From the sequence record OR885871: a DNA stretch of 64,000 nt; one strand, 5' to 3'. The notes beneath the pieces are model-generated. The model did not search any database and was not told the DNA's origin. It saw only the letters and a list, made by a program, of their open reading frames with translations. Within the stretch, counting starts at the first letter, position 1. The number at the start of each line of letters is the position of its first letter. The position numbers and the translations under genes were made by a program. Shown here piece after piece: positions 12,601-22,817 of this stretch. The stretch comes from Escherichia phage vB_EcoM_JN03.

Positions 12601-14468
12601 CCACATATACATACACGGACAAAACAACCACGACCATGACTGGTGAACAGATTGTGGAGACGCAAGTTATCCCATACATGCGCGAGATCGATATTTCTTT
12701 CGACGCATCTGGGCTGCGACCTTTCACTCGTATGTATGCGTTTTTCTCTGGTCGTGACGTTAATCTGTATTGCAAACCGAATGGTGGTAATTTCGGAGAC
12801 CCAATCACCACTGATGCCAATGGTGCTGTTAAAGGTGTATTCCGCGTTCCACAGAACGATACAATCAAGTTCAACACAGGCGACAACGTGTTCCGCTTAA
12901 CGGATAGCCCTGTTGACAGTAAATCTGCGGATGATACACTGACCAATGCAGAAATTGTTCATAAATCTTTCGGTAAGAAACAAGGTATTCAAAAGACCTT
13001 TGTCAACACTCGTGTCCTTGGTTACACTGCCAGTACTCGCACCGAAACCAGCACTTCTGAAGTTGTGGTCGACCAATGGCGTGATCCGATTGCCCAATCG
13101 TTTATGGTGGCGACTAAGAATGGCGGCGAGTATATCGAAGGCGTGGAAGTATTCTTCTCTACCAAGTCACGTGATGTTCCGATCACTCTGGAAATTCGCG
13201 AGATGGAGAATGGCTTACCTTCTCACACAGTCATTACTCGTAAGACTTTGAACCCATCTGAAGTGACGATCTCTACAGACTCTTCCGGCGGTACGAAGTT
13301 CACCTTTGATTATCCGGTGTATCTGCAAGCATCTACTGAGTTTGCTATCGTTTTGTTGGCGAATACTCAGGATTACAACGCGTATATCGCGGAAATGGGC
13401 AAGAAAAACCTTCTGTCCAACGAATATATCGCCAAACAACCGTATACGGGGGTGTTCTTCACTTCTTCAAACGGTTCAACTTGGTCTCCGAACCAAATGG
13501 CCGATATGAAATTCCGCATATATCGTTGCAACTTTGCGGCTGGTCAGAACGTTGTAACATTTGATCCGAAGCTCGGGCCAAAACAACGTCCGTTGGGATT
13601 GAACACTCTGAACTGCGTAAGCGGGTCTTCTGTTGTGACTGTGTTTGCACCTGGTCATGGTTTGGTTGCTGGGAACAATGTCACTCTTTCTGAATTGACA
13701 GGCGGTTGTGGCTTTACTCCTGAACAACTTAACAAAACGTTTACTGTGACAGATGCGAGCTATACTTCATTCAAGATTGACGTCGGTACGGCAGCAGACA
13801 GCAATGGGCAAATCGGTGGAGATAATGCTTCTTTCTTGGGCAATTATCTGGTTGATATGTTCTATGCCAGCGTTACCAATTCGGCTCTGGAAGGTTCAAT
13901 TCTGAAATTGGAATACCGTTATCGCGATGCCACTTCAAATTCTATGTCTGATTGGGCTGAGTTTGAAACTGACACTGACGTGGCGTTACCGACTGAAGGT
14001 ATCTATCGTCAGGTTGGTGACTTCCAGATTCGTGCTACTATGACTCGTAGTGAAAACAACGTGTACACAGCACCGATGATTGATGGTGATGACCTGAGCG
14101 TGATCTTCAACTCTTATGGCGTAGATCCTTTTGAAGACGTTTTCAAATATGTCACAAAGGACATTGGTTTCGATAACCCATGTTCGACTGTGAAACTGTT
14201 CTTCGGGGCGATGCTGCCTTCTCAGTCTTCGATGAAGATGCAGGTGAAACTTCTACGAGCAGGGCAAGAGATGGATAGTGTGGCTTGGGAAGACGTCGCC
14301 CCAACTTCGCCTTTGGTTAACGACGGTTCCACATTCTTTGAATATGAGTATGACAAGACTGTGGCAAGCAACAATCCGTTCGTTGGATTAAAAGTCAGAG
14401 CACTTGTAAGGGGGAACCGAGTTGCTCCTCCTTCGTTCAAAGACTTCCGTCTTATTGCTCTGGCATAA
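9630..14468 (+). CDS. Large (1612 aa) putative virion structural protein, tail/baseplate-associated
   Basis: Long uninterrupted ORF between the tailspike cluster and the neck genes, preceded by a late-type box. Ser/Thr/Gly/Asn-rich composition typical of fibre or baseplate proteins. No catalytic motifs recognised; function is positional inference. Confidence 0.45.
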   Translation: MQSTNLNRRPYWDDWNPGKRFSRILFRPMPIKVQTRELNQMQTILQDQIEKLGNHLFKDGSMVIPGGLTITNAAVSLKFTLAGGTEFTDLEGISELYVLGKDNNAKARVLSLERDLSAPDTMLAILEMTEAGNADGFHVNDNLYFQTYDVNDNFIRIGYGIAAAVTGSIVARMTKGVYFIRGMFLDVDDATLIVDKTSNTSSHRIGFKVTETIVTETEDESLYSNAQGTINSKAPGAHRLRIDLVLSRFDYDAVVEDFVELAKVRDGKIQSMVTQSTYNILEDTLAQRTYETNGDYNVSTHQIDIREHLKVNNNGGVFNAADGGDESKFVSVMKPGISYVRGRRIENVGEELVIVDKARDTDVLNNTPVAVATGNYLVTKNSKGVPVISRTVRYKLLNASGVTQATALCISAERNSTEFRLYMRDLVVTGDASTITKVSYEESGITMFSAELESNQFNQSSMIDLIFSLPVFGVKTLAPTGSVDINYTVLRTYKVTLDNSGAGSISAPLGYSFSPEFSLYSAAKSDGSEAQFDISGSLSLTGSPVGSALQISLGSGNANQSINLLALMIRTTATIKTKTITETTETVTFTSQTSRPLANHDGWKLVSVKNDTGADVTSSFVLDGGQRDAGYYKSNLLSSAGAISGTYTVVYQYFAHSSGDFFSADSYTSMDYKDIPNYTSSTSGAVYGLADSLDFRPKITNGTSDTDMVRPNTAVILDTEYYLPRIDAIYLADNGVFGVARGISSNNLASPAIPANAMRLYELLIPPYTPNIDDIQIRTIDNRRYTMRDIGKLETRISNVEYYTSLSQLESSAMTQQVFDPITGNPRFKNGIAADPFKDFRLIDDLSEDWMGSIDTENGRLRPFVQQNVVDMTPVGWNKVMDGMVVCNYTPEISVNQEYATTTINVNPYAVFNWEGFLKINPTTDYWFENYYVAPRIINETINTRGTVQEGSVYGTWRTVSVSDRVWEPHGAGGVWWGYRYRTTVSARDVTTYTYTDKTTTTMTGEQIVETQVIPYMREIDISFDASGLRPFTRMYAFFSGRDVNLYCKPNGGNFGDPITTDANGAVKGVFRVPQNDTIKFNTGDNVFRLTDSPVDSKSADDTLTNAEIVHKSFGKKQGIQKTFVNTRVLGYTASTRTETSTSEVVVDQWRDPIAQSFMVATKNGGEYIEGVEVFFSTKSRDVPITLEIREMENGLPSHTVITRKTLNPSEVTISTDSSGGTKFTFDYPVYLQASTEFAIVLLANTQDYNAYIAEMGKKNLLSNEYIAKQPYTGVFFTSSNGSTWSPNQMADMKFRIYRCNFAAGQNVVTFDPKLGPKQRPLGLNTLNCVSGSSVVTVFAPGHGLVAGNNVTLSELTGGCGFTPEQLNKTFTVTDASYTSFKIDVGTAADSNGQIGGDNASFLGNYLVDMFYASVTNSALEGSILKLEYRYRDATSNSMSDWAEFETDTDVALPTEGIYRQVGDFQIRATMTRSENNVYTAPMIDGDDLSVIFNSYGVDPFEDVFKYVTKDIGFDNPCSTVKLFFGAMLPSQSSMKMQVKLLRAGQEMDSVAWEDVAPTSPLVNDGSTFFEYEYDKTVASNNPFVGLKVRALVRGNRVAPPSFKDFRLIALA

Positions 14469-14520
14469 ATAATGTTGAAAGGTGGGCGTAAAGCCCACCA
14501 AACCAATAGAGGATAAAAAT

Positions 14521-14769: not shown

Positions 14770-15094
14770 AAGAACGGGGCTTGACATCCGTGGTATCTTA
14801 ACCGCTGTCGTGGCTTCTGCATTGGTCTCGGCAGCATCGTTCCTTTGGTTCATGGGCGGGATGGAAACGCGCGTGAATGTATTGGAACGAGATTCCAACA
14901 AGATGGATCAAGTTCTTCAGAAAGTGAATGACATGAGTGAACGTATGGCGATCATGAATACTGACCTCGCATATGTCAAACAAAACATGGCTGAGTTAAA
15001 ACTCAATAGCAGCAGTCTTTCAGATGATGTTCGCACACTGCGGATTACTGTATCTGATTTGCAGCAAAAGGGGAATAACAATGGCCGTCAATAA
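14753..15094 (+). CDS. Membrane-anchored coiled-coil protein (113 aa)
   Basis: RBS gaaggagg. One hydrophobic helix (ILTAVVASALVSAASFLWFMGG) followed by a heptad-like segment. Confidence 0.5.
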   Translation: MATQAERTGLDIRGILTAVVASALVSAASFLWFMGGMETRVNVLERDSNKMDQVLQKVNDMSERMAIMNTDLAYVKQNMAELKLNSSSLSDDVRTLRITVSDLQQKGNNNGRQ

Positions 15095-15833
15095 GATTCG
15101 AGACAAAAAATCTTTTATGAATTATGTCTTGCGTAAATTGGGCGCTCCTGTGATCCAAATTAACCTTGACAGTTCACAAGTCGAAGATGCAGTCGATGAT
15201 GCTCTGCAGAAATTTTGGGAATATCATCGTGATGGTAGCCAAGATGCGTTCTTCCTGTACCAAGTTAAACAAGAAGATATCGACAAGGGATATATAGAAT
15301 TTCCCGATGATATTGACGATGTGATTGAAGTTATCCCTGGACCTCCTATTGAGTCAATCGGAAACTGGGCAACTCCTCAATGGCAAATGGCTCAAGCAAT
15401 GCTTGTCCCCAAAGCAGCGCTGGTTTCTATTCGTCTCATTGATTATGTTTCCATGCAACAACGCCTGTCGGATATCACAAGCGTCTTAAATGTTCGCCGT
15501 AATTTTGTGTACAAGAAGTTCCAGCGACGCCTTTACCCGCAGTTTGCTGCCATTGTTGATGAAACTCTGGCTTTTCGTTGTTATCAAAATATCGACCCCG
15601 AATCGGAAGAAAACGCTGAAGCATGGAATGATATGTGGTTGAAAGCGTATGCGACTGCATTGGTCAAGCGCCGTTGGGCAGAGGTGCTTAAGAAGGCAAG
15701 AGGCATCCGTCTCCCTGGTGGTATCGAACTGGATGGTGATAGTATGTTCAGTGAGGCCGAGACCGAGATAGAGCGGCTGGAGGAAGAATTGCGTACTGGT
15801 CAGCAATACCCTATCGATTTTATGATGGGATAA
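15081..15833 (+). CDS. gp13: Neck protein gp13 homolog
   Basis: N-terminal RKLGAPVIQINLDSSQVEDAVDDALQKFWEYHRDG resembles T4 gp13 (recalled from memory); sits immediately upstream of gp14/gp15 as in T4. Confidence 0.65.
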   Translation: MAVNKIRDKKSFMNYVLRKLGAPVIQINLDSSQVEDAVDDALQKFWEYHRDGSQDAFFLYQVKQEDIDKGYIEFPDDIDDVIEVIPGPPIESIGNWATPQWQMAQAMLVPKAALVSIRLIDYVSMQQRLSDITSVLNVRRNFVYKKFQRRLYPQFAAIVDETLAFRCYQNIDPESEENAEAWNDMWLKAYATALVKRRWAEVLKKARGIRLPGGIELDGDSMFSEAETEIERLEEELRTGQQYPIDFMMG

Positions 15834-15837
15834 GAGA

Positions 15838-15868
15838 AGGCGGGTTATCCCGCCTTTCTTTTTATAAC
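15838..15868. terminator. Bidirectional terminator hairpin (aaggcgggttatcccgcctt flanked by A/T runs)
   Basis: Lies between the convergent gp13 (+) and the minus-strand ORF 15862..16074. Confidence 0.6.
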
Positions 15869-16074
15869 TTGATGTCGCGTCCGGAAGGATCTGAATTTGC
15901 TAGAATATAACCATCAACCACGTTCTTTTCGTCCCACCATTCAATAAAATCATTATCCTTTTCGCCTTTGATAAGACCCACAATGTTATATGAACCATCG
16001 GCGATTTTAGCATCTACACAGATAATTCTCACACGCCTTCCGTCACGAGTTTCTTTAATATCTTCAACCTTCAT
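15862..16074 (-). CDS. Small minus-strand protein (70 aa), function unknown
   Basis: Occupies the 300-bp gap between gp13 and gp14. Strong RBS on the minus strand (ttgaggaattgataaATG). No similarity recognised. Confidence 0.5.
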   Translation of the reverse strand: MKVEDIKETRDGRRVRIICVDAKIADGSYNIVGLIKGEKDNDFIEWWDEKNVVDGYILANSDPSGRDIKL

Positions 16075-16105
16075 TTATCAATTCCTCAAAAGAATTAATG
16101 ATTGA

Positions 16106-16113
16106 CTAAATAC
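16106..16113 (+). promoter_or_regulatory. Late-promoter-like box CTAAATAC upstream of gp14
   Basis: About 22 nt upstream of the ATG at 16136. Confidence 0.4.
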
Positions 16114-16135
16114 CTTCAAAATTGAGGGTAAAGTC

Positions 16136-16777
16136 ATGGCTACTTCAAAATATTTCAACTATACAGCACATCAAGGTACTCAAAAATTAATTGATGACTT
16201 GGTGGTCGAGATGATACAATTGCGTGGGATTGACGTCAAGTATATCCCACGTTCTATTGTTGAAAAATACCCAATTTTAAACGAGGCCGAACACAAATTC
16301 GACCAAGCGTTTGACATCGAAGTGTATATGCAGGATTATCAAGGCTTCAACACACAGATGTGGGAAAAGTTCGGCGGTATCCAATTACAAGATGAAGTGA
16401 CCTTCACTATTGCTCGTCGTCGTTTTTCAGAAGTTATTGGTAATGGTCCAGGCCTTGAACAAATGCCTCAAGAAGGTGATTTGATATATCTGCCTATGGC
16501 TAACAAAATATTTAAAGTGAATAACCCGAACAACGATGAAGAATTCATGCAATTTGGGAAATGGTACACATATTCCCTACCATGTACGTTGTTCCAATAC
16601 GGTAACGAAGATTTCGATACAGGTGTATCTGAAATAGACGATATCGATAAACGATTGCAGGATCTGGAAGGAGACGGTGTGTACAAAGACGCCAGCCTGC
16701 AAACGGATAACCAATTTGCGGACGAAATAGAGAAAGATCTTTCGCCCAATAAAATGAAGATAGACTTCGGGGAATAA
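16136..16777 (+). CDS. gp14: Neck protein gp14 homolog
   Basis: EKYPIL, PQEGDLIYLPMANKIFKV and LPCTLFQYGNED segments resemble T4 gp14 (from memory); position between gp13 and gp15. Confidence 0.7.
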   Translation: MATSKYFNYTAHQGTQKLIDDLVVEMIQLRGIDVKYIPRSIVEKYPILNEAEHKFDQAFDIEVYMQDYQGFNTQMWEKFGGIQLQDEVTFTIARRRFSEVIGNGPGLEQMPQEGDLIYLPMANKIFKVNNPNNDEEFMQFGKWYTYSLPCTLFQYGNEDFDTGVSEIDDIDKRLQDLEGDGVYKDASLQTDNQFADEIEKDLSPNKMKIDFGE

Positions 16778-16779
16778 TC

Positions 16780-17478
16780 ATGGCCAGACCATTTGAAAAA
16801 TATTTCTACCATGAATCGTTGTTGAAATATATCCATGTTTTCAACGCTATCATGTCGGATTTAAAAGTCAAAACCGAACGTGGCTTGATGGAAATCCCGC
16901 TGCATATGGCCATTGGCCGCCGTAATGACCTCAACAGGAACGTGCCAGCCAATATGCTGCCATTTGCAACAATGTCCTTTGGTCAGTTCGAAATCAATAA
17001 ACAGGTGACCAAGTCGTATCATAATCAGATATCGACTGCAACTGCGCGGTCCAAACAACGAATTCCGATCATTATAGATTTTGAATATAACATCAGAACG
17101 AAGAAACTGGTCGAAATGCTACAGGTGTTGGAACAAATTTATTCTGTGTTCACTCCTTCTGTTGACTGTCAGATAAAGGACAACGACACTTTATCTCAAG
17201 ATCAGAACGTGAAGATAATGTTGGTAAATCACACGATTTCTGACAACTGGGAAGGAGACGCAACAGAATCACCACACATAGATTGTTCATTCAATTTTCA
17301 ATTACATGGTCACATCTATGGAGAAGATTATTGGGTTGATGATGGTTCGGGCGGTGGGGATCCAAACGTCATCAAAGAGATAATTATTGAAATGTCTAAT
17401 GATTTGAACATGCCATGGTCGGAACTTCCTGAATGGTTCCGAGTTGATAAAGACGGCATACATCATCCGGAGGATTGA
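16780..17478 (+). CDS. gp15: Tail sheath stabilizer / tail completion protein gp15 homolog
   Basis: LLKYIHVFNAIMSDLKVK and VKIMLVNHTISDNWEGD...FNFQLHGHIY resemble T4 gp15 blocks; starts 2 nt after the gp14 stop. Confidence 0.65.
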   Translation: MARPFEKYFYHESLLKYIHVFNAIMSDLKVKTERGLMEIPLHMAIGRRNDLNRNVPANMLPFATMSFGQFEINKQVTKSYHNQISTATARSKQRIPIIIDFEYNIRTKKLVEMLQVLEQIYSVFTPSVDCQIKDNDTLSQDQNVKIMLVNHTISDNWEGDATESPHIDCSFNFQLHGHIYGEDYWVDDGSGGGDPNVIKEIIIEMSNDLNMPWSELPEWFRVDKDGIHHPED

Positions 17479-18161
17479 TCATGAGCAATATGTCAGAAAG
17501 GTTACTCGCCACACTTGATGCGGTGACTGCCCGAGACGAAGTTGGGAAGGAGGCAATGGAGGCTGTCGCCCCTCGTCCAGGTATTGACTTCGATGAAAAT
17601 ACAGGTGAATGGTTTGGTGAACGTCCGGAAGGGTATCAGCCGATTCCTGAACCGCCTTCATTGGAGGATATTGCTTCCAAGGAATCCAAAGTACCTGAGT
17701 TTGCGGACACTGATGCTACAACGGATTACAAACGGATACGCGACACAACATATGCCATGCAAGAAGCCACAATGTTCATGATGGGACAAGCCGCTAAATT
17801 GGCTGCATCCACAGAAGCTCCGCGAGCATTTTCTGTTTTCCGTGAATTGGGTGAACTCATGCGAGGTCTGAATAAAGACTTGATGGAAAACCAGAAAACC
17901 ATCAAGGCAGTAACAGGTGATAAAGAACCACCTGTTGATGACACGACAGTGGATGTTACAACTTCACCAGACGGAACAACAACAGTATCGGTTGGGAAAA
18001 AGGCGCGATCTTCTCGCGATTTATTGAAGACGATCGAAGATGCACGCCGCCGCGCTGAAGAAAGAGCACAAGCAAAGGCCGCACAACAACCAGAAGATGA
18101 AATCATTGATGGTGAAACAGTTGATGTGAAGGAAGAAGACGATGGCGTATCAGAAGCGTGA
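17475..18161 (+). CDS. gp16: Terminase small subunit gp16 homolog
   Basis: Immediately upstream of and overlapping the large terminase. Segment EAPRAFSVFRELGELMRGLNKDLMENQKTIK resembles T4 gp16; acidic C-terminus. Confidence 0.65.
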   Translation: MIMSNMSERLLATLDAVTARDEVGKEAMEAVAPRPGIDFDENTGEWFGERPEGYQPIPEPPSLEDIASKESKVPEFADTDATTDYKRIRDTTYAMQEATMFMMGQAAKLAASTEAPRAFSVFRELGELMRGLNKDLMENQKTIKAVTGDKEPPVDDTTVDVTTSPDGTTTVSVGKKARSSRDLLKTIEDARRRAEERAQAKAAQQPEDEIIDGETVDVKEEDDGVSEA

Positions 18162-20352
18162 TATAGAATATGCCCCAATTAAAACGGGGTTCAAAATAGA
18201 CGATGTGAAATTGCGTATGGACCAAACGTTCATGCGCAAACCTTCTGTGCGTGCTCCTCGAGTCGAGTTAATGCTGACAGATGAACAAGAAGACGAATTC
18301 GTTGAATGTTCTATGGATGCACACTACTTCGCCGCCAACTATTACAAGATAACCACGATCGATAAGGGCTTTATCCTTTTCGATATGCATGATTATCAGA
18401 AGCAGTTGTTCCACGACTTTCAGGACTATCGATTCAATGCGGTCGTCCAGGCTCGTCAGTCCGGTAAATGCGTCCGTGGTGATACTCTTGTTTATGTCTA
18501 TGATACAATCAGTCAACAAGAGTTGCATCTCACCATAGAAGAGCTTCACAAGCGCTTCGAAGGACCGAACCATGCTGTGCCACTGAATACCATTGGCAAC
18601 CACAATAAGTTTGTAGACAGCCGTTTCGGGAAACGATATTTTGTTGAGTCCGACACTGGCTGGGTTCCGGTTATTGCCGCTCATAAAACGAAAGAATACG
18701 CTGAATACGTTGTCAGGACTGAAACCGGACGCACAATTCATGTCGCAGATGAGCACATGTTCTTCAATGAATATGGGCGCGAAGTATTTGCTAAAGACAT
18801 GGAGGCCGGAGATGCCATAATGACCCAGGAGGGAATAGAATTCATCTCTGAGATCTGGGAGACTGGTGAGTACCACCACATGTATGACTTGCAAGTCAAG
18901 TCCAGCGATCAACGTTATTACACGAATGGGTTCCTCAGCCATAATACCACGGTCGTGGCTGCGTTTCTTCTTTGGTATGCGATGTTCCACTCAGACAAAG
19001 AAATCGCGGTACTGGCAAACAAAGAGAAACAAGCGATTGAAATTCTTGACCGTATCAGGAAGGCGTATCAGGACCTCCCATTCTTCCTTCAGCAGGGTTG
19101 TGAGAAGTTTGGTTCTACCCTGATAGAGTTTGAGAATGGTTCTAAGATATACGCTTATGCCACGTCTTCGGACTCCATCCGTGGTCGTTCTGTATCGCTC
19201 TTGTACGTTGACGAAGTCGCGTTTATCGAAAACGACTTTGAATTTTGGGAATCAACTTTCCCAGCCATTGCATCTGCCGATACATCACGCTGTATTTTGA
19301 CAAGTACTCCGAAAGGCCAGCGAGGGTTGTTCTATGATATTGTCACCAAAGCAGATCCGCGCCATCCACAATACAACGACTTCCACCTAACTGAAGTCCC
19401 ATGGTATAAGGTTCCGGCATATACCAAAGATCCAGATTGGGAAACCAAACAACGTGCCCGTCTGGGGGATGCTCGTTTCGATCAAGAATTTGGCATTAAG
19501 TTCCGTGGTTCCGTGGGTTCATTGATTCCGGCCAAATGCTTAGATAAAATGACGTCCAAGTTATATCGGGAACCTAATGAATTCACCAAGATTTATAAGG
19601 AATACGACCCACAACGTCTCTACTTTGGGATTGCGGACACTGGGAAGGGGGTGGAAGGAGATTATTCCGTCTTAACAATTCTGGATATAACTGAATATCC
19701 GCATGTTATAGCAGCCAAGTACAGGAATAACACGATACCTCCTATGATGTATGCATACACGATAGCTGATATGTGCACCGAATACGGGGAATGCCCTGTC
19801 CTTGTTGAAACAAACAACGACGTCGGCGGTCAGGTTATTACAATTCTTTATCAAGAGATAGAATATCCAGAAATCATATTCACATCAACAGATAACAAAG
19901 GGACGGGGAAACGGATTGGTGGACGTAAACCGGAACCTGGTATCAATACCAACAGAAAAGTCCGATCTATCGGTTGTGCTAACCTGAAAGCGCTCATTGA
20001 GAAAGAAATGTTGGTGATAGAAGACCAGGACACGATAGATGAACTCAGTACATTTGTGTTCAAAGGCGCTCGGTATGAAGCCGATGACGGTTGTCACGAT
20101 GACTGTGTCATGCCGTTGGTCTTATATTCTTGGGCAGTTAAACAAGAATGGTTCAGTGATTTGACATCTACAAGTATTTCTCAGGACATGAGAAACCGAA
20201 TGTCTTCAACTGAATCTCAGCAGGTATTCCCATTTGGTGGTTTAGTCGTTGGAGACACCCCATCCGAAACTGAGCATTTGCCTGGTTTCGGGGGTATTCA
20301 AGTTTTCAACGAAATGTCAGGGATGACCATGGATGAGTGGTTTAAGAATTGA
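18142..20352 (+). CDS. gp17: Terminase large subunit gp17 homolog, interrupted by a mini-intein
   Basis: Extein sequence QARQSGK/TTVVAAFLLWYAMFHSDKEIAVLANKEKQ matches the T4 gp17 Walker A region (SRQLGKTTVVAIFLAHF...). Downstream blocks (LLYVDEVAFI, TSTPKG) fit the ATPase/nuclease. 736 aa in total, 577 aa after excision. Confidence 0.9.
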   Translation: MAYQKRDIEYAPIKTGFKIDDVKLRMDQTFMRKPSVRAPRVELMLTDEQEDEFVECSMDAHYFAANYYKITTIDKGFILFDMHDYQKQLFHDFQDYRFNAVVQARQSGKCVRGDTLVYVYDTISQQELHLTIEELHKRFEGPNHAVPLNTIGNHNKFVDSRFGKRYFVESDTGWVPVIAAHKTKEYAEYVVRTETGRTIHVADEHMFFNEYGREVFAKDMEAGDAIMTQEGIEFISEIWETGEYHHMYDLQVKSSDQRYYTNGFLSHNTTVVAAFLLWYAMFHSDKEIAVLANKEKQAIEILDRIRKAYQDLPFFLQQGCEKFGSTLIEFENGSKIYAYATSSDSIRGRSVSLLYVDEVAFIENDFEFWESTFPAIASADTSRCILTSTPKGQRGLFYDIVTKADPRHPQYNDFHLTEVPWYKVPAYTKDPDWETKQRARLGDARFDQEFGIKFRGSVGSLIPAKCLDKMTSKLYREPNEFTKIYKEYDPQRLYFGIADTGKGVEGDYSVLTILDITEYPHVIAAKYRNNTIPPMMYAYTIADMCTEYGECPVLVETNNDVGGQVITILYQEIEYPEIIFTSTDNKGTGKRIGGRKPEPGINTNRKVRSIGCANLKALIEKEMLVIEDQDTIDELSTFVFKGARYEADDGCHDDCVMPLVLYSWAVKQEWFSDLTSTSISQDMRNRMSSTESQQVFPFGGLVVGDTPSETEHLPGFGGIQVFNEMSGMTMDEWFKN
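18469..18945 (+). other. Mini-intein (159 aa) within the terminase large subunit P-loop
   Basis: Begins with Cys (CVRGDTLV, block A-like), ends with ...NGFLSHN followed by a Thr +1 residue. Removing it restores the canonical GKT Walker A. Too short for an endonuclease domain. Confidence 0.8.
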
Positions 20353-22358: not shown

Positions 22359-22817
22359 ATGATATACGCATACAAAATTGAAACGATAACTAATGGAAAG
22401 GTCTACATCGGTGTGACCAATGACCCACAACGAAGATATGATCAGCATTTTGCGAATGCTTTTCATCATGGAGTCCAAAGTGAATTGTATGATGCCATGC
22501 GTAAGTATGGAACATCTGGATTTACTTTCGTTGTAATTGCTCAGACCGATGAAGTCCATAAATGGGAATTAGAGAAGCAACTCATCGCTCAATATAATTC
22601 TTATGAGATGGGTTACAACATGAATAAAGGCGGTAATGATGGAAGTCATATGCTGGGTAAAACTGCAGCAAAATTGACATCCACAGGTGAACACATTGGT
22701 CTTGTTTCTCTCATAGATCCCCGTTGGGAATTGTGTGAAATCGAACCCGTTTTAAGCAATGTTGACCACGGATTTGATTTTTCTTCCATGAAGATTAAAA
22801 GATTGACGACTAATTAG
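22359..22817 (+). CDS. GIY-YIG homing endonuclease (free-standing, short form)
   Basis: IYAYKIE...GKVYIGVT (GIY/YIG), RRYDQH (conserved Arg), YNMNKGGNDGSH (conserved Asn region). Inserted between the sheath and tube genes. Confidence 0.8.
   Translation: MIYAYKIETITNGKVYIGVTNDPQRRYDQHFANAFHHGVQSELYDAMRKYGTSGFTFVVIAQTDEVHKWELEKQLIAQYNSYEMGYNMNKGGNDGSHMLGKTAAKLTSTGEHIGLVSLIDPRWELCEIEPVLSNVDHGFDFSSMKIKRLTTN

Follow-up and report, generated by a model that had tools for sequence, protein, structure and literature searches.

A putative class 1 mini-intein in the Walker A P-loop of the large terminase of Escherichia phage vB_EcoM_JN03

Results

The window analysed here, a stretch of 64,000 nucleotides (nt) from Escherichia phage vB_EcoM_JN03 (sequence record OR885871), contains a terL gene for a large terminase (TerL) of the phage T4 gp17 type, the Walker A P-loop of which is interrupted by an in-frame insert of 159 amino acids (aa). 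The insert is most probably a canonical class 1 mini-intein, that is, a HINT splicing domain with no homing endonuclease, and a probability of roughly 0.9 is assigned to this interpretation. The features of the locus are collected in Table 1; the motif coordinates in terL and the intein were confirmed by a separate check.

Table 1. Features of the terL locus of the window, with positions, strand and supporting evidence
Feature	Position	Strand	Basis
terL precursor open reading frame, large terminase (T4 gp17 type) with predicted intein; 736 aa, 84.8 kDa	18142-20352	+	Open reading frame list; gp17 PDB matches; Terminase_6N and Terminase_6C
N-extein, 109 aa; C-terminal end QARQSGK is Walker A through the invariant Lys (18448-18468)	18142-18468	+	
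Predicted class 1 mini-intein, 159 aa, 18.6 kDa, one Cys (Cys1)	18469-18945	+	mat_peptide 'intein' on equivalent codons of phages Mooltan and Magnus
Block A, CVRGDT; Cys1 is the predicted N-terminal nucleophile	18469-18486	+	Cys1 invariant in 18 homologues
Variable loop/helical region, intein residues 12-45	18502-18603	+	Length varies among relatives; break point of naturally split relatives
Block B core, ADEH; His96 invariant	18745-18756	+	Homologue alignment
Block F, MYDLQV; Met138 and Asp140 invariant	18880-18897	+	Homologue alignment
Block G, LSHN; penultimate His158 and terminal Asn159 (predicted to form the succinimide)	18934-18945	+	Invariant in homologues; TIGR01443 close to cutoff
C-extein, 468 aa; opens with Thr+1 (18946-18948), TTVVAAF; includes Walker B SLLYVDEVAF (19195-19224) and the nuclease domain	18946-20349	+	
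Recombinant patch (maximum extent), Mooltan-type; whole intein and 132-173 nt of C-extein in a CBA120-type terL	18454-19118	n/a	Informative-site map; synonymous divergence (dS)

The translation of the precursor open reading frame (ORF) reads ...QARQSGK-CVRGDTLV...YYTNGFLSHN-TTVVAAFLLWYAMF..., exactly as quoted in a first-pass annotation, made from the letters of the sequence, which had placed a mini-intein at this site. When aligned to T4 gp17 (PDB 3ezk, 3cpe), the precursor matches in two pieces, residues 28-109 and residues 268-675 (E 7e-69, both domains), which abut in gp17 at ...SRQLGK/TTVVA... (the slash marks an insertion site here and below). Since the two pieces meet at this K/T, the insert lies exactly between the Walker A Lys and Thr. 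Deletion of the insert in silico raises the score of the Pfam domain Terminase_6N from 60.2 to 77.5 bits, the match then spanning the P-loop, and the Terminase_6C domain of the TerL spliced in silico scores 21.7 bits against a cutoff of 22.6. The two-piece alignment and the gain in Terminase_6N bear out the earlier claim that the insert splits Walker A at GK/T and that its removal recreates a gp17-like loop. The protein has the Walker A motif, the Walker B motif (SLLYVDE) and the C-terminal RNase H-like nuclease domain that define a gp17-type large terminase. The predicted masses of the precursor, the ligated TerL and the intein are 84.8, 66.2 and 18.6 kDa, in agreement with the estimates of ~66 kDa for the spliced product and ~18 kDa for the intein made at first pass. 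In the window, terS and terL overlap by 20 nt. An antisense ORF of 240 aa that overlaps the intein (18268-18990, minus strand) matches no Pfam family and is presumed to be spurious.

The residues expected of a protein-splicing element were examined in an alignment with 18 inserts taken from TerL relatives, which are 30-79% identical to the window intein. The invariant columns are Cys1, K47-F48, G64, T74, A93-D94-x-H96, M138-x-D140, T152 and L156-S157-H158-N159, and the +1 residue following the intein is Thr in every homologue but one (P0109), in which it is Ser. The Cys at the start, the His-Asn at the end and the Thr at +1, to which attention had been drawn as hallmarks of splicing, are thus conserved down to 30% identity. 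The insert alone matches the Pfam family Intein_splicing (PF14890) at an E value of 3.5e-8, a family matched by 16 of the 18 members of the alignment, and reaches 25.5 bits with the NCBIfam model TIGR01445 (intein_Nterm; curated cutoff 24.5), of which positions 1-82 of 83 are covered. A search of the PDB with the family profile returned ten matches, inteins without exception; VidaL (1.1e-11), gp41-1 (3.1e-11) and consensus CatC (1.9e-10) rank highest, and NrdJ-1, Cdc21, Spl DnaX and PolB16 are among the weaker ones.

The solved mini-inteins matched by the window intein are 118-168 aa long. Block B His96 and block F Asp140 are separated by 43 residues, and no endonuclease domain was found with Pfam in the insert or in its family (no LAGLIDADG, HNH or GIY-YIG match). 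The insert is a mini-intein without room for a homing endonuclease, as its length had earlier been taken to mean. Because Cys1 is present and block F has an Asp and not a Cys, the intein is assigned by its sequence to class 1 rather than class 3; inteins of class 3 have no nucleophile at position 1 and carry a WCT triplet with a block F Cys, and the sole Cys of the window intein is Cys1. Nor is the intein naturally split into fragments on separate genes, as one unbroken ORF covers both exteins and the intein. A profile scan of the window in all reading frames revealed no second intein.

The ratio of nonsynonymous to synonymous substitution (dN/dS) of the intein, calculated by the Nei-Gojobori method, is 0.03-0.09 wherever dS is unsaturated, which indicates strong purifying selection on the protein sequence. 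This selection bears on the idea that the 477 nt are removed at the RNA level, as a group I or group II intron or by translational bypass, with no protein-level element involved. Group I introns do occur in T4-like phages, and the terL of some relatives is interrupted downstream by a homing endonuclease gene. However, the insert is open in frame, is strongly selected at the amino-acid level and carries the intein blocks; moreover, no group I or group II intron was matched in Rfam between positions 18000 and 19300 at E values up to 1, save for a chance hit of 19 nt (E 0.78). Removal as RNA is hardly credible at this locus.

The same conserved residues weigh on a second alternative, in which splicing has been lost and the insert is retained in the mature terminase as a HINT-like structural or regulatory domain. 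The protein of Dickeya phage phiD3 is indeed annotated as 'pretoxin HINT domain protein', the PT-HINT family is weakly matched by 3 of the 18 members, and excision of the insert is itself a prediction from sequence. A retained domain of 159 aa between the Walker A Lys and Thr would nevertheless be incompatible with the P-loop geometry of gp17, as judged from the gp17 alignment; the residues that serve splicing only (Cys1, His-Asn and Thr+1) are invariant at 30% identity, and intein-less orthologues have an uninterrupted loop. Retention of the insert in the working enzyme is therefore considered very improbable.

The TerL intein is already known: it was published in 2013 for Salmonella phage Maynard and is annotated in GenBank. 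The Maynard genome paper (PMC3868846) describes this intein, which is 99% identical to that of the window in protein sequence, and the 99%-identical protein of 159 aa appears in nr under the name 'intein [Salmonella phage Maynard]'. The intein of Salmonella phage Mooltan, 99.4% identical to the window's in protein and 99.6% in nucleotide sequence, carries a mat_peptide 'intein' feature on the equivalent codons (gene nt 328-804) and is mentioned in print (PMC6486243). That of Klebsiella phage Magnus, 84% identical and at the same site, is annotated at gene nt 328-804 and is likewise mentioned in print (PMC6763660). The window intein and the TerL inteins found in Maynard, Marshall and Mooltan (Salmonella phages) and in Magnus (Klebsiella phage), all of them Ackermannviridae, are one and the same element, with no essential difference. 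The window terL is 100% identical in nucleotide sequence to that of Escherichia phage FEC14 (Ackermannviridae, Kuttervirus), the record of which leaves the intein unflagged.

In the phage collection, a C-extein of at least 60% identity is found in ~283 phage records and an intein of at least 60% identity in ~278, and a query with the spliced-junction peptide gave no contiguous near-identical allele among the matches listed. Among cultured Ackermannviridae, the intein is thus close to fixation. Intein-less terminase alleles, with which a comparison had been recommended at first pass, do exist. Metagenomic TerLs P0015-P0019 (575-581 aa, 74-85% identical to the window's) and more distant TerLs of the Vibrio phage type are without the insert and read RQSGK/TTVVAAF, which is the predicted ligated product. 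Among cultured phages, Erwinia phages vB_EamM-Bue1 (NC_048702; Ackermannviridae, genus Nezavisimistyvirus in its record) and phiEa2809 have no intein and likewise read RQSGK/TTVVAAF, and the terL DNA of Bue1 is collinear with the window flanks, codon by codon. In the extein tree, the intein-less lineages are nested among the intein-bearing ones, a sporadic pattern typical of inteins. A seemingly disrupted intein in Klebsiella phage TTM-TASP117 (L009, PV588649) was rejected as an assembly artefact, the partial genome having a 100-N gap and duplicated flanks there.

An exhaustive search of 1.84 billion representative proteins gave 751 matches at E values up to 0.001. As many as 113 of the best 150 representatives begin, within their first ~50 residues, at the equivalent of intein residue ~46, before K47-F48, and run through SHN/T into the TerL C-extein, some of them into a Clp-type AAA+ ATPase. 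A start at this point corresponds to the architecture of the atypically split inteins AceL-TerL and GOS-TerL, and the sequence places the window intein as a contiguous member of that lineage, to which the consensus intein 'Cat' (PDB 6dsl) and VidaL (PDB 6vgv) also belong. AceL-TerL and GOS-TerL are split with a short N-fragment, and their trans-splicing rates have been measured. In contrast, the window intein is contiguous and predicted to splice in cis, with a loop of 34 residues at the break point of its AceL-TerL-type relatives. The nucleophiles differ too, being Cys1 and Thr+1 in the window intein and Ser1 and Cys+1 in GOS-TerL.

Further members of the lineage were noted in other settings. 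In Salicola phage SCTP-2, a 440-kb jumbo phage (gene 267, L007 2492-3385), and in P0123-P0125 and P0129, terL starts inside the intein near residue ~46; this suggests natural split inteins of the AceL-TerL type, and in several such terL genes a further intein lies in or close to Walker B. The same intein lineage follows the P-loop Lys of Clp-type AAA+ ATPases in P0127, P0132 and P0135 (SHN/TLIAKK, SHN/TEIARQLAKK) and seems to be specialised for GK/T sites across unrelated ATPases. The intein in the terL of Vibrio phage VP-1 (L006 1985-5327) is 37% identical and occupies the same GK/T site, with a loop 19 aa longer. Farther downstream this terL continues into a GIY-YIG-like sequence, and the remaining TerL is annotated separately as 'terminase like family protein'; the break is probably due to an intron or to interruption by an endonuclease gene.

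The Lys/Thr position is described as the 'classic' P-loop insertion of inteins (Kelley et al. 2016, PMC5050341), and phage terminases are frequent hosts of inteins, with P-loops as recurrent sites (Novikova et al. 2016, PMC4760082). The host proteins are nevertheless different: the mycobacteriophage P-loop inteins TerL1-a and TerL1-b reside in terminase_1 proteins, whereas the window intein is in a T4-type terminase_6, and in the survey of Kelley et al. terminase_6-like proteins had inteins only in the C-motif (PMC5050341). Several mycobacteriophage TerL inteins hold active homing endonucleases, unlike that of the window. An earlier T4-like example of a terminase intein is Campylobacter phage IBB_35 (PMC3322345). 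The T4-like terminase of IBB_35/CP21 has a homologous P-loop mini-intein, 33% identical over residues 44-159, but its site is 2-3 residues earlier (RQ/SSKST) than that of the window, and its terL further contains a second intein start near Walker B (after FS/C; CP21 L008 1994-3205) and an intron with an HNH endonuclease. The P-loop inteins of DnaB (site b), MCM (site a) and RFC share the preference for the Walker A loop of P-loop NTPases (PMC4760082), although these are cellular replication proteins and their inteins are only distantly related to that of the window.

The history of the window intein was traced at 341 informative positions at which the terL genes of phages CBA120 and Mooltan differ. 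The window terL follows CBA120 at gene nt 33-312, Mooltan at 324-936 and mainly CBA120 from 978 to the gene end. The Mooltan-type patch is 615-665 nt long, its 5' breakpoint lying at 18453-18465, 4-15 nt upstream of the intein, and its 3' breakpoint at 19077-19119. As compared to Mooltan, the window has a dS of 0.90 in the N-extein, 0.010 in the intein and 0.71 in the C-extein; as compared to CBA120, dS is 0.03 and 0.08 in the exteins, and the intein is saturated (proportion of synonymous differences, pS, 0.77). The window terL is a recombinant, namely a CBA120-type gene with a Mooltan-type intein patch.

Comparison of the window intein (18469-18945) with L002 (CBA120), L013-L015, L025 and L026 distinguished two intein alleles in Kuttervirus, 'CVRGD...GRTIHVADEH' and 'CVKGD...GRRINVADEH', which are 27% apart in nucleotide and 21% in protein sequence. 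The extein proteins of the window and CBA120 (L002) are identical despite their different intein alleles. Within Kuttervirus, copies of the first allele show 0-3 mismatches per 477 nt (99.6-100% identity), against up to 53/327 and 172/1407 (up to 16%) in the flanks. Such a pattern could point to a recent sweep of the intein cassette or to homing specific to the intein; both were rejected, as a 10-kb control showed tracts of ~0% divergence interspersed with tracts of 10-15% throughout the neighbourhood, and comparable small patches in other places. Ordinary homologous recombination is therefore sufficient, and no special homing mechanism is needed.

In the 105 pairs compared, intein identity typically lies 17 points below extein identity. 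The single reversed pair is PhaxI (Kuttervirus, CBA120-type intein) and an Agtrevirus-like lineage (L025), with 97.5% identity in the intein and 86.5% in the extein; at the nucleotide level, the CBA120-type/PhaxI intein is 93.1% identical to that of the lineage, against 76-85% in the flanks. The lineage matches phages such as AV101 (about AV101/LHE287), and AV101 is named an Agtrevirus in the title of its paper. The sequences thus indicate a transfer of intein sequence between genera, with Kuttervirus and an Agtrevirus-like lineage as the partners. The recombinant terL, the two diverged Kuttervirus alleles and the allele in common with Agtrevirus are new side-observations.

Discussion

The anatomy of the insert, its exact position, the conservation of its residues, the selection acting on it, its homology to solved and tested inteins and its distribution were all established here; splicing, inactivity of the precursor and constitutive kinetics are inferred. 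If the standard class 1 pathway is taken as the mechanism, an 85-kDa precursor would be made with its P-loop interrupted between Lys109 and Thr, presumably unable to bind or hydrolyse ATP. An N-S acyl shift by Cys1 at the Lys109-Cys1 bond would give a thioester, and attack on the thioester by the hydroxyl of Thr+1 a branched intermediate. Cyclisation of Asn159, aided by His158 and by residues of blocks B and F, would then free the 18.6-kDa intein, and an O-N shift would remake the Lys-Thr peptide bond, yielding a 66.2-kDa TerL with an intact QSGKTT P-loop. The interrupted terL is carried by hundreds of viable phages; functional TerL must therefore arise from the interrupted gene. That the packaging ATPase would depend on splicing, as the first-pass annotation had proposed, is a sound deduction from the split P-loop.

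Several observations weigh against this interpretation. As a single sequence, the insert scores 33.9 bits with PF14890, borderline to the cutoff of 35.8, and with the short intein_Cterm model TIGR01443 it scores 14.1, slightly below the cutoff of 15.6. The AlphaFold2 model of the intein, built from the single sequence, has a mean predicted local distance difference test (pLDDT) score of 36.4 and is unusable, so that it does not confirm a HINT fold. Block B reads ADxH in every family member, with Ala at the canonical Thr position of TxxH and an invariant His96. The His is the more critical residue of the TxxH motif. Thr is less often used as the +1 nucleophile, a review putting its pairing with Cys1 at ~12% of cases, and Thr+1 together with the ADxH block B makes slow splicing possible. 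The searchable literature yielded no splicing experiment on the window intein or on any Ackermannviridae TerL, and the TerL peptides listed in one proteomic study, of Vi01-like phages, carry no information on the junction.

The possible effect of Thr+1 and the block B Ala on catalysis also enters into a regulatory interpretation, according to which the precursor accumulates and splices on cue (redox, temperature, or the availability of procapsid or DNA), so timing the onset of packaging. The split P-loop should leave the precursor inactive, and Novikova et al. (PMC4760082) argue that a host benefit may lie behind the concentration of inteins in P-loops; in addition, purifying selection acts on the intein, which is close to fixation in the family. 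Near-fixation and loss of the endonuclease are, however, already predicted by the life cycle of a selfish element, and nested intein-less relatives in the same family do without an intein. No sensor feature is seen either: the single Cys leaves no internal disulfide trap, and there is no added domain. Five tested mycobacteriophage TerL inteins, including one in the P-loop, 'spliced readily' in E. coli, with the ligated extein predominant (Kelley et al., PMC5050341). Conditional splicing is thus unlikely, and the post-translational control point for packaging suggested at first pass finds no support in these features or in the ready, constitutive splicing of the nearest tested TerL inteins. By analogy with those inteins, splicing is most likely fast and constitutive and not regulatory.

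A related proposal is that the intein has been retained for a function, either because a slow or conditional Cys1/Thr+1 step delays the terminase, or because the intein shields the P-loop DNA from a free-standing homing endonuclease with a NUMOD3 motif (see below); two old alleles would then have been maintained and exchanged between genera. Little chance is given to this proposal. The canonical mini-intein is better pictured as a late-stage selfish element, nearly fixed in cultured Ackermannviridae and without an endonuclease. Its splicing competence would be held by purifying selection, since imprecise deletion from the P-loop would be lethal, and its alleles may spread between phages through ordinary homologous recombination during co-infection.

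As a discovery, the intein carries little weight, the TerL intein having been reported in 2013 and the P-loop Lys/Thr being a textbook site. Its practical bearing is that terL codes for a precursor in the ViI-like phages, a group in wide use for biocontrol and detection, and that many records, including that of FEC14, are silent on the intein; an unflagged intein can distort TerL-based phylogenies and predictions of packaging type. Protein engineering makes use of the atypically split TerL inteins, of which the window intein is a natural contiguous, putatively cis-splicing cousin. The empty alleles of Erwinia phages, the two alleles, the one allele shared with Agtrevirus and the clean recombinant together form a natural dataset for the persistence and movement of an endonuclease-less intein.

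Genes of endonuclease type and indels were also recorded near terL. A gene of ~880 nt with a NUMOD3 motif, the protein of which is probably a homing endonuclease, lies between terS and terL, ~310 nt upstream of the intein site, and occurs sporadically, in some relatives from three Ackermannviridae lineages (L005 1309-2187, phiD3; L009 1306-2187, TTM-TASP117; and L022). In L022 the insertion at terS/terL is seen solely as an alignment gap, and its NUMOD3 identity is presumed. The gene is absent from the window at the terS/terL junction (~18157). At ~16153, upstream of the gp14 neck gene and near a small minus-strand ORF, Kuttervirus loci L019, L022, L013 and L026 have an insertion of ~900 alignment columns that is absent from the window.

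Between its genes for the tail sheath (gp18) and the tail tube (gp19), the window has a free-standing GIY-YIG homing endonuclease gene (22359-22817, plus strand). In related phages the gp18/gp19 slot is occupied by one or two different endonuclease genes, which makes it an indel hotspot. A link between this GIY-YIG gene and the type of intein was considered and dismissed, as the gene is found with both intein alleles. Over a 14.2-kb locus, the window differs from FEC14 (NC_049427) by 146 mismatches; it is identical to FEC14 at ~15000-19500 but not elsewhere, with 52 mismatches in 14000-14500, for example. The window is therefore not FEC14 itself but a close relative within Kuttervirus. Its best 24-kb match to any phage record is 97.8%, and the top record bears the name 'Enterococcus phage Efm 3-10', although Enterococcus would be an implausible host for a phage of this type.

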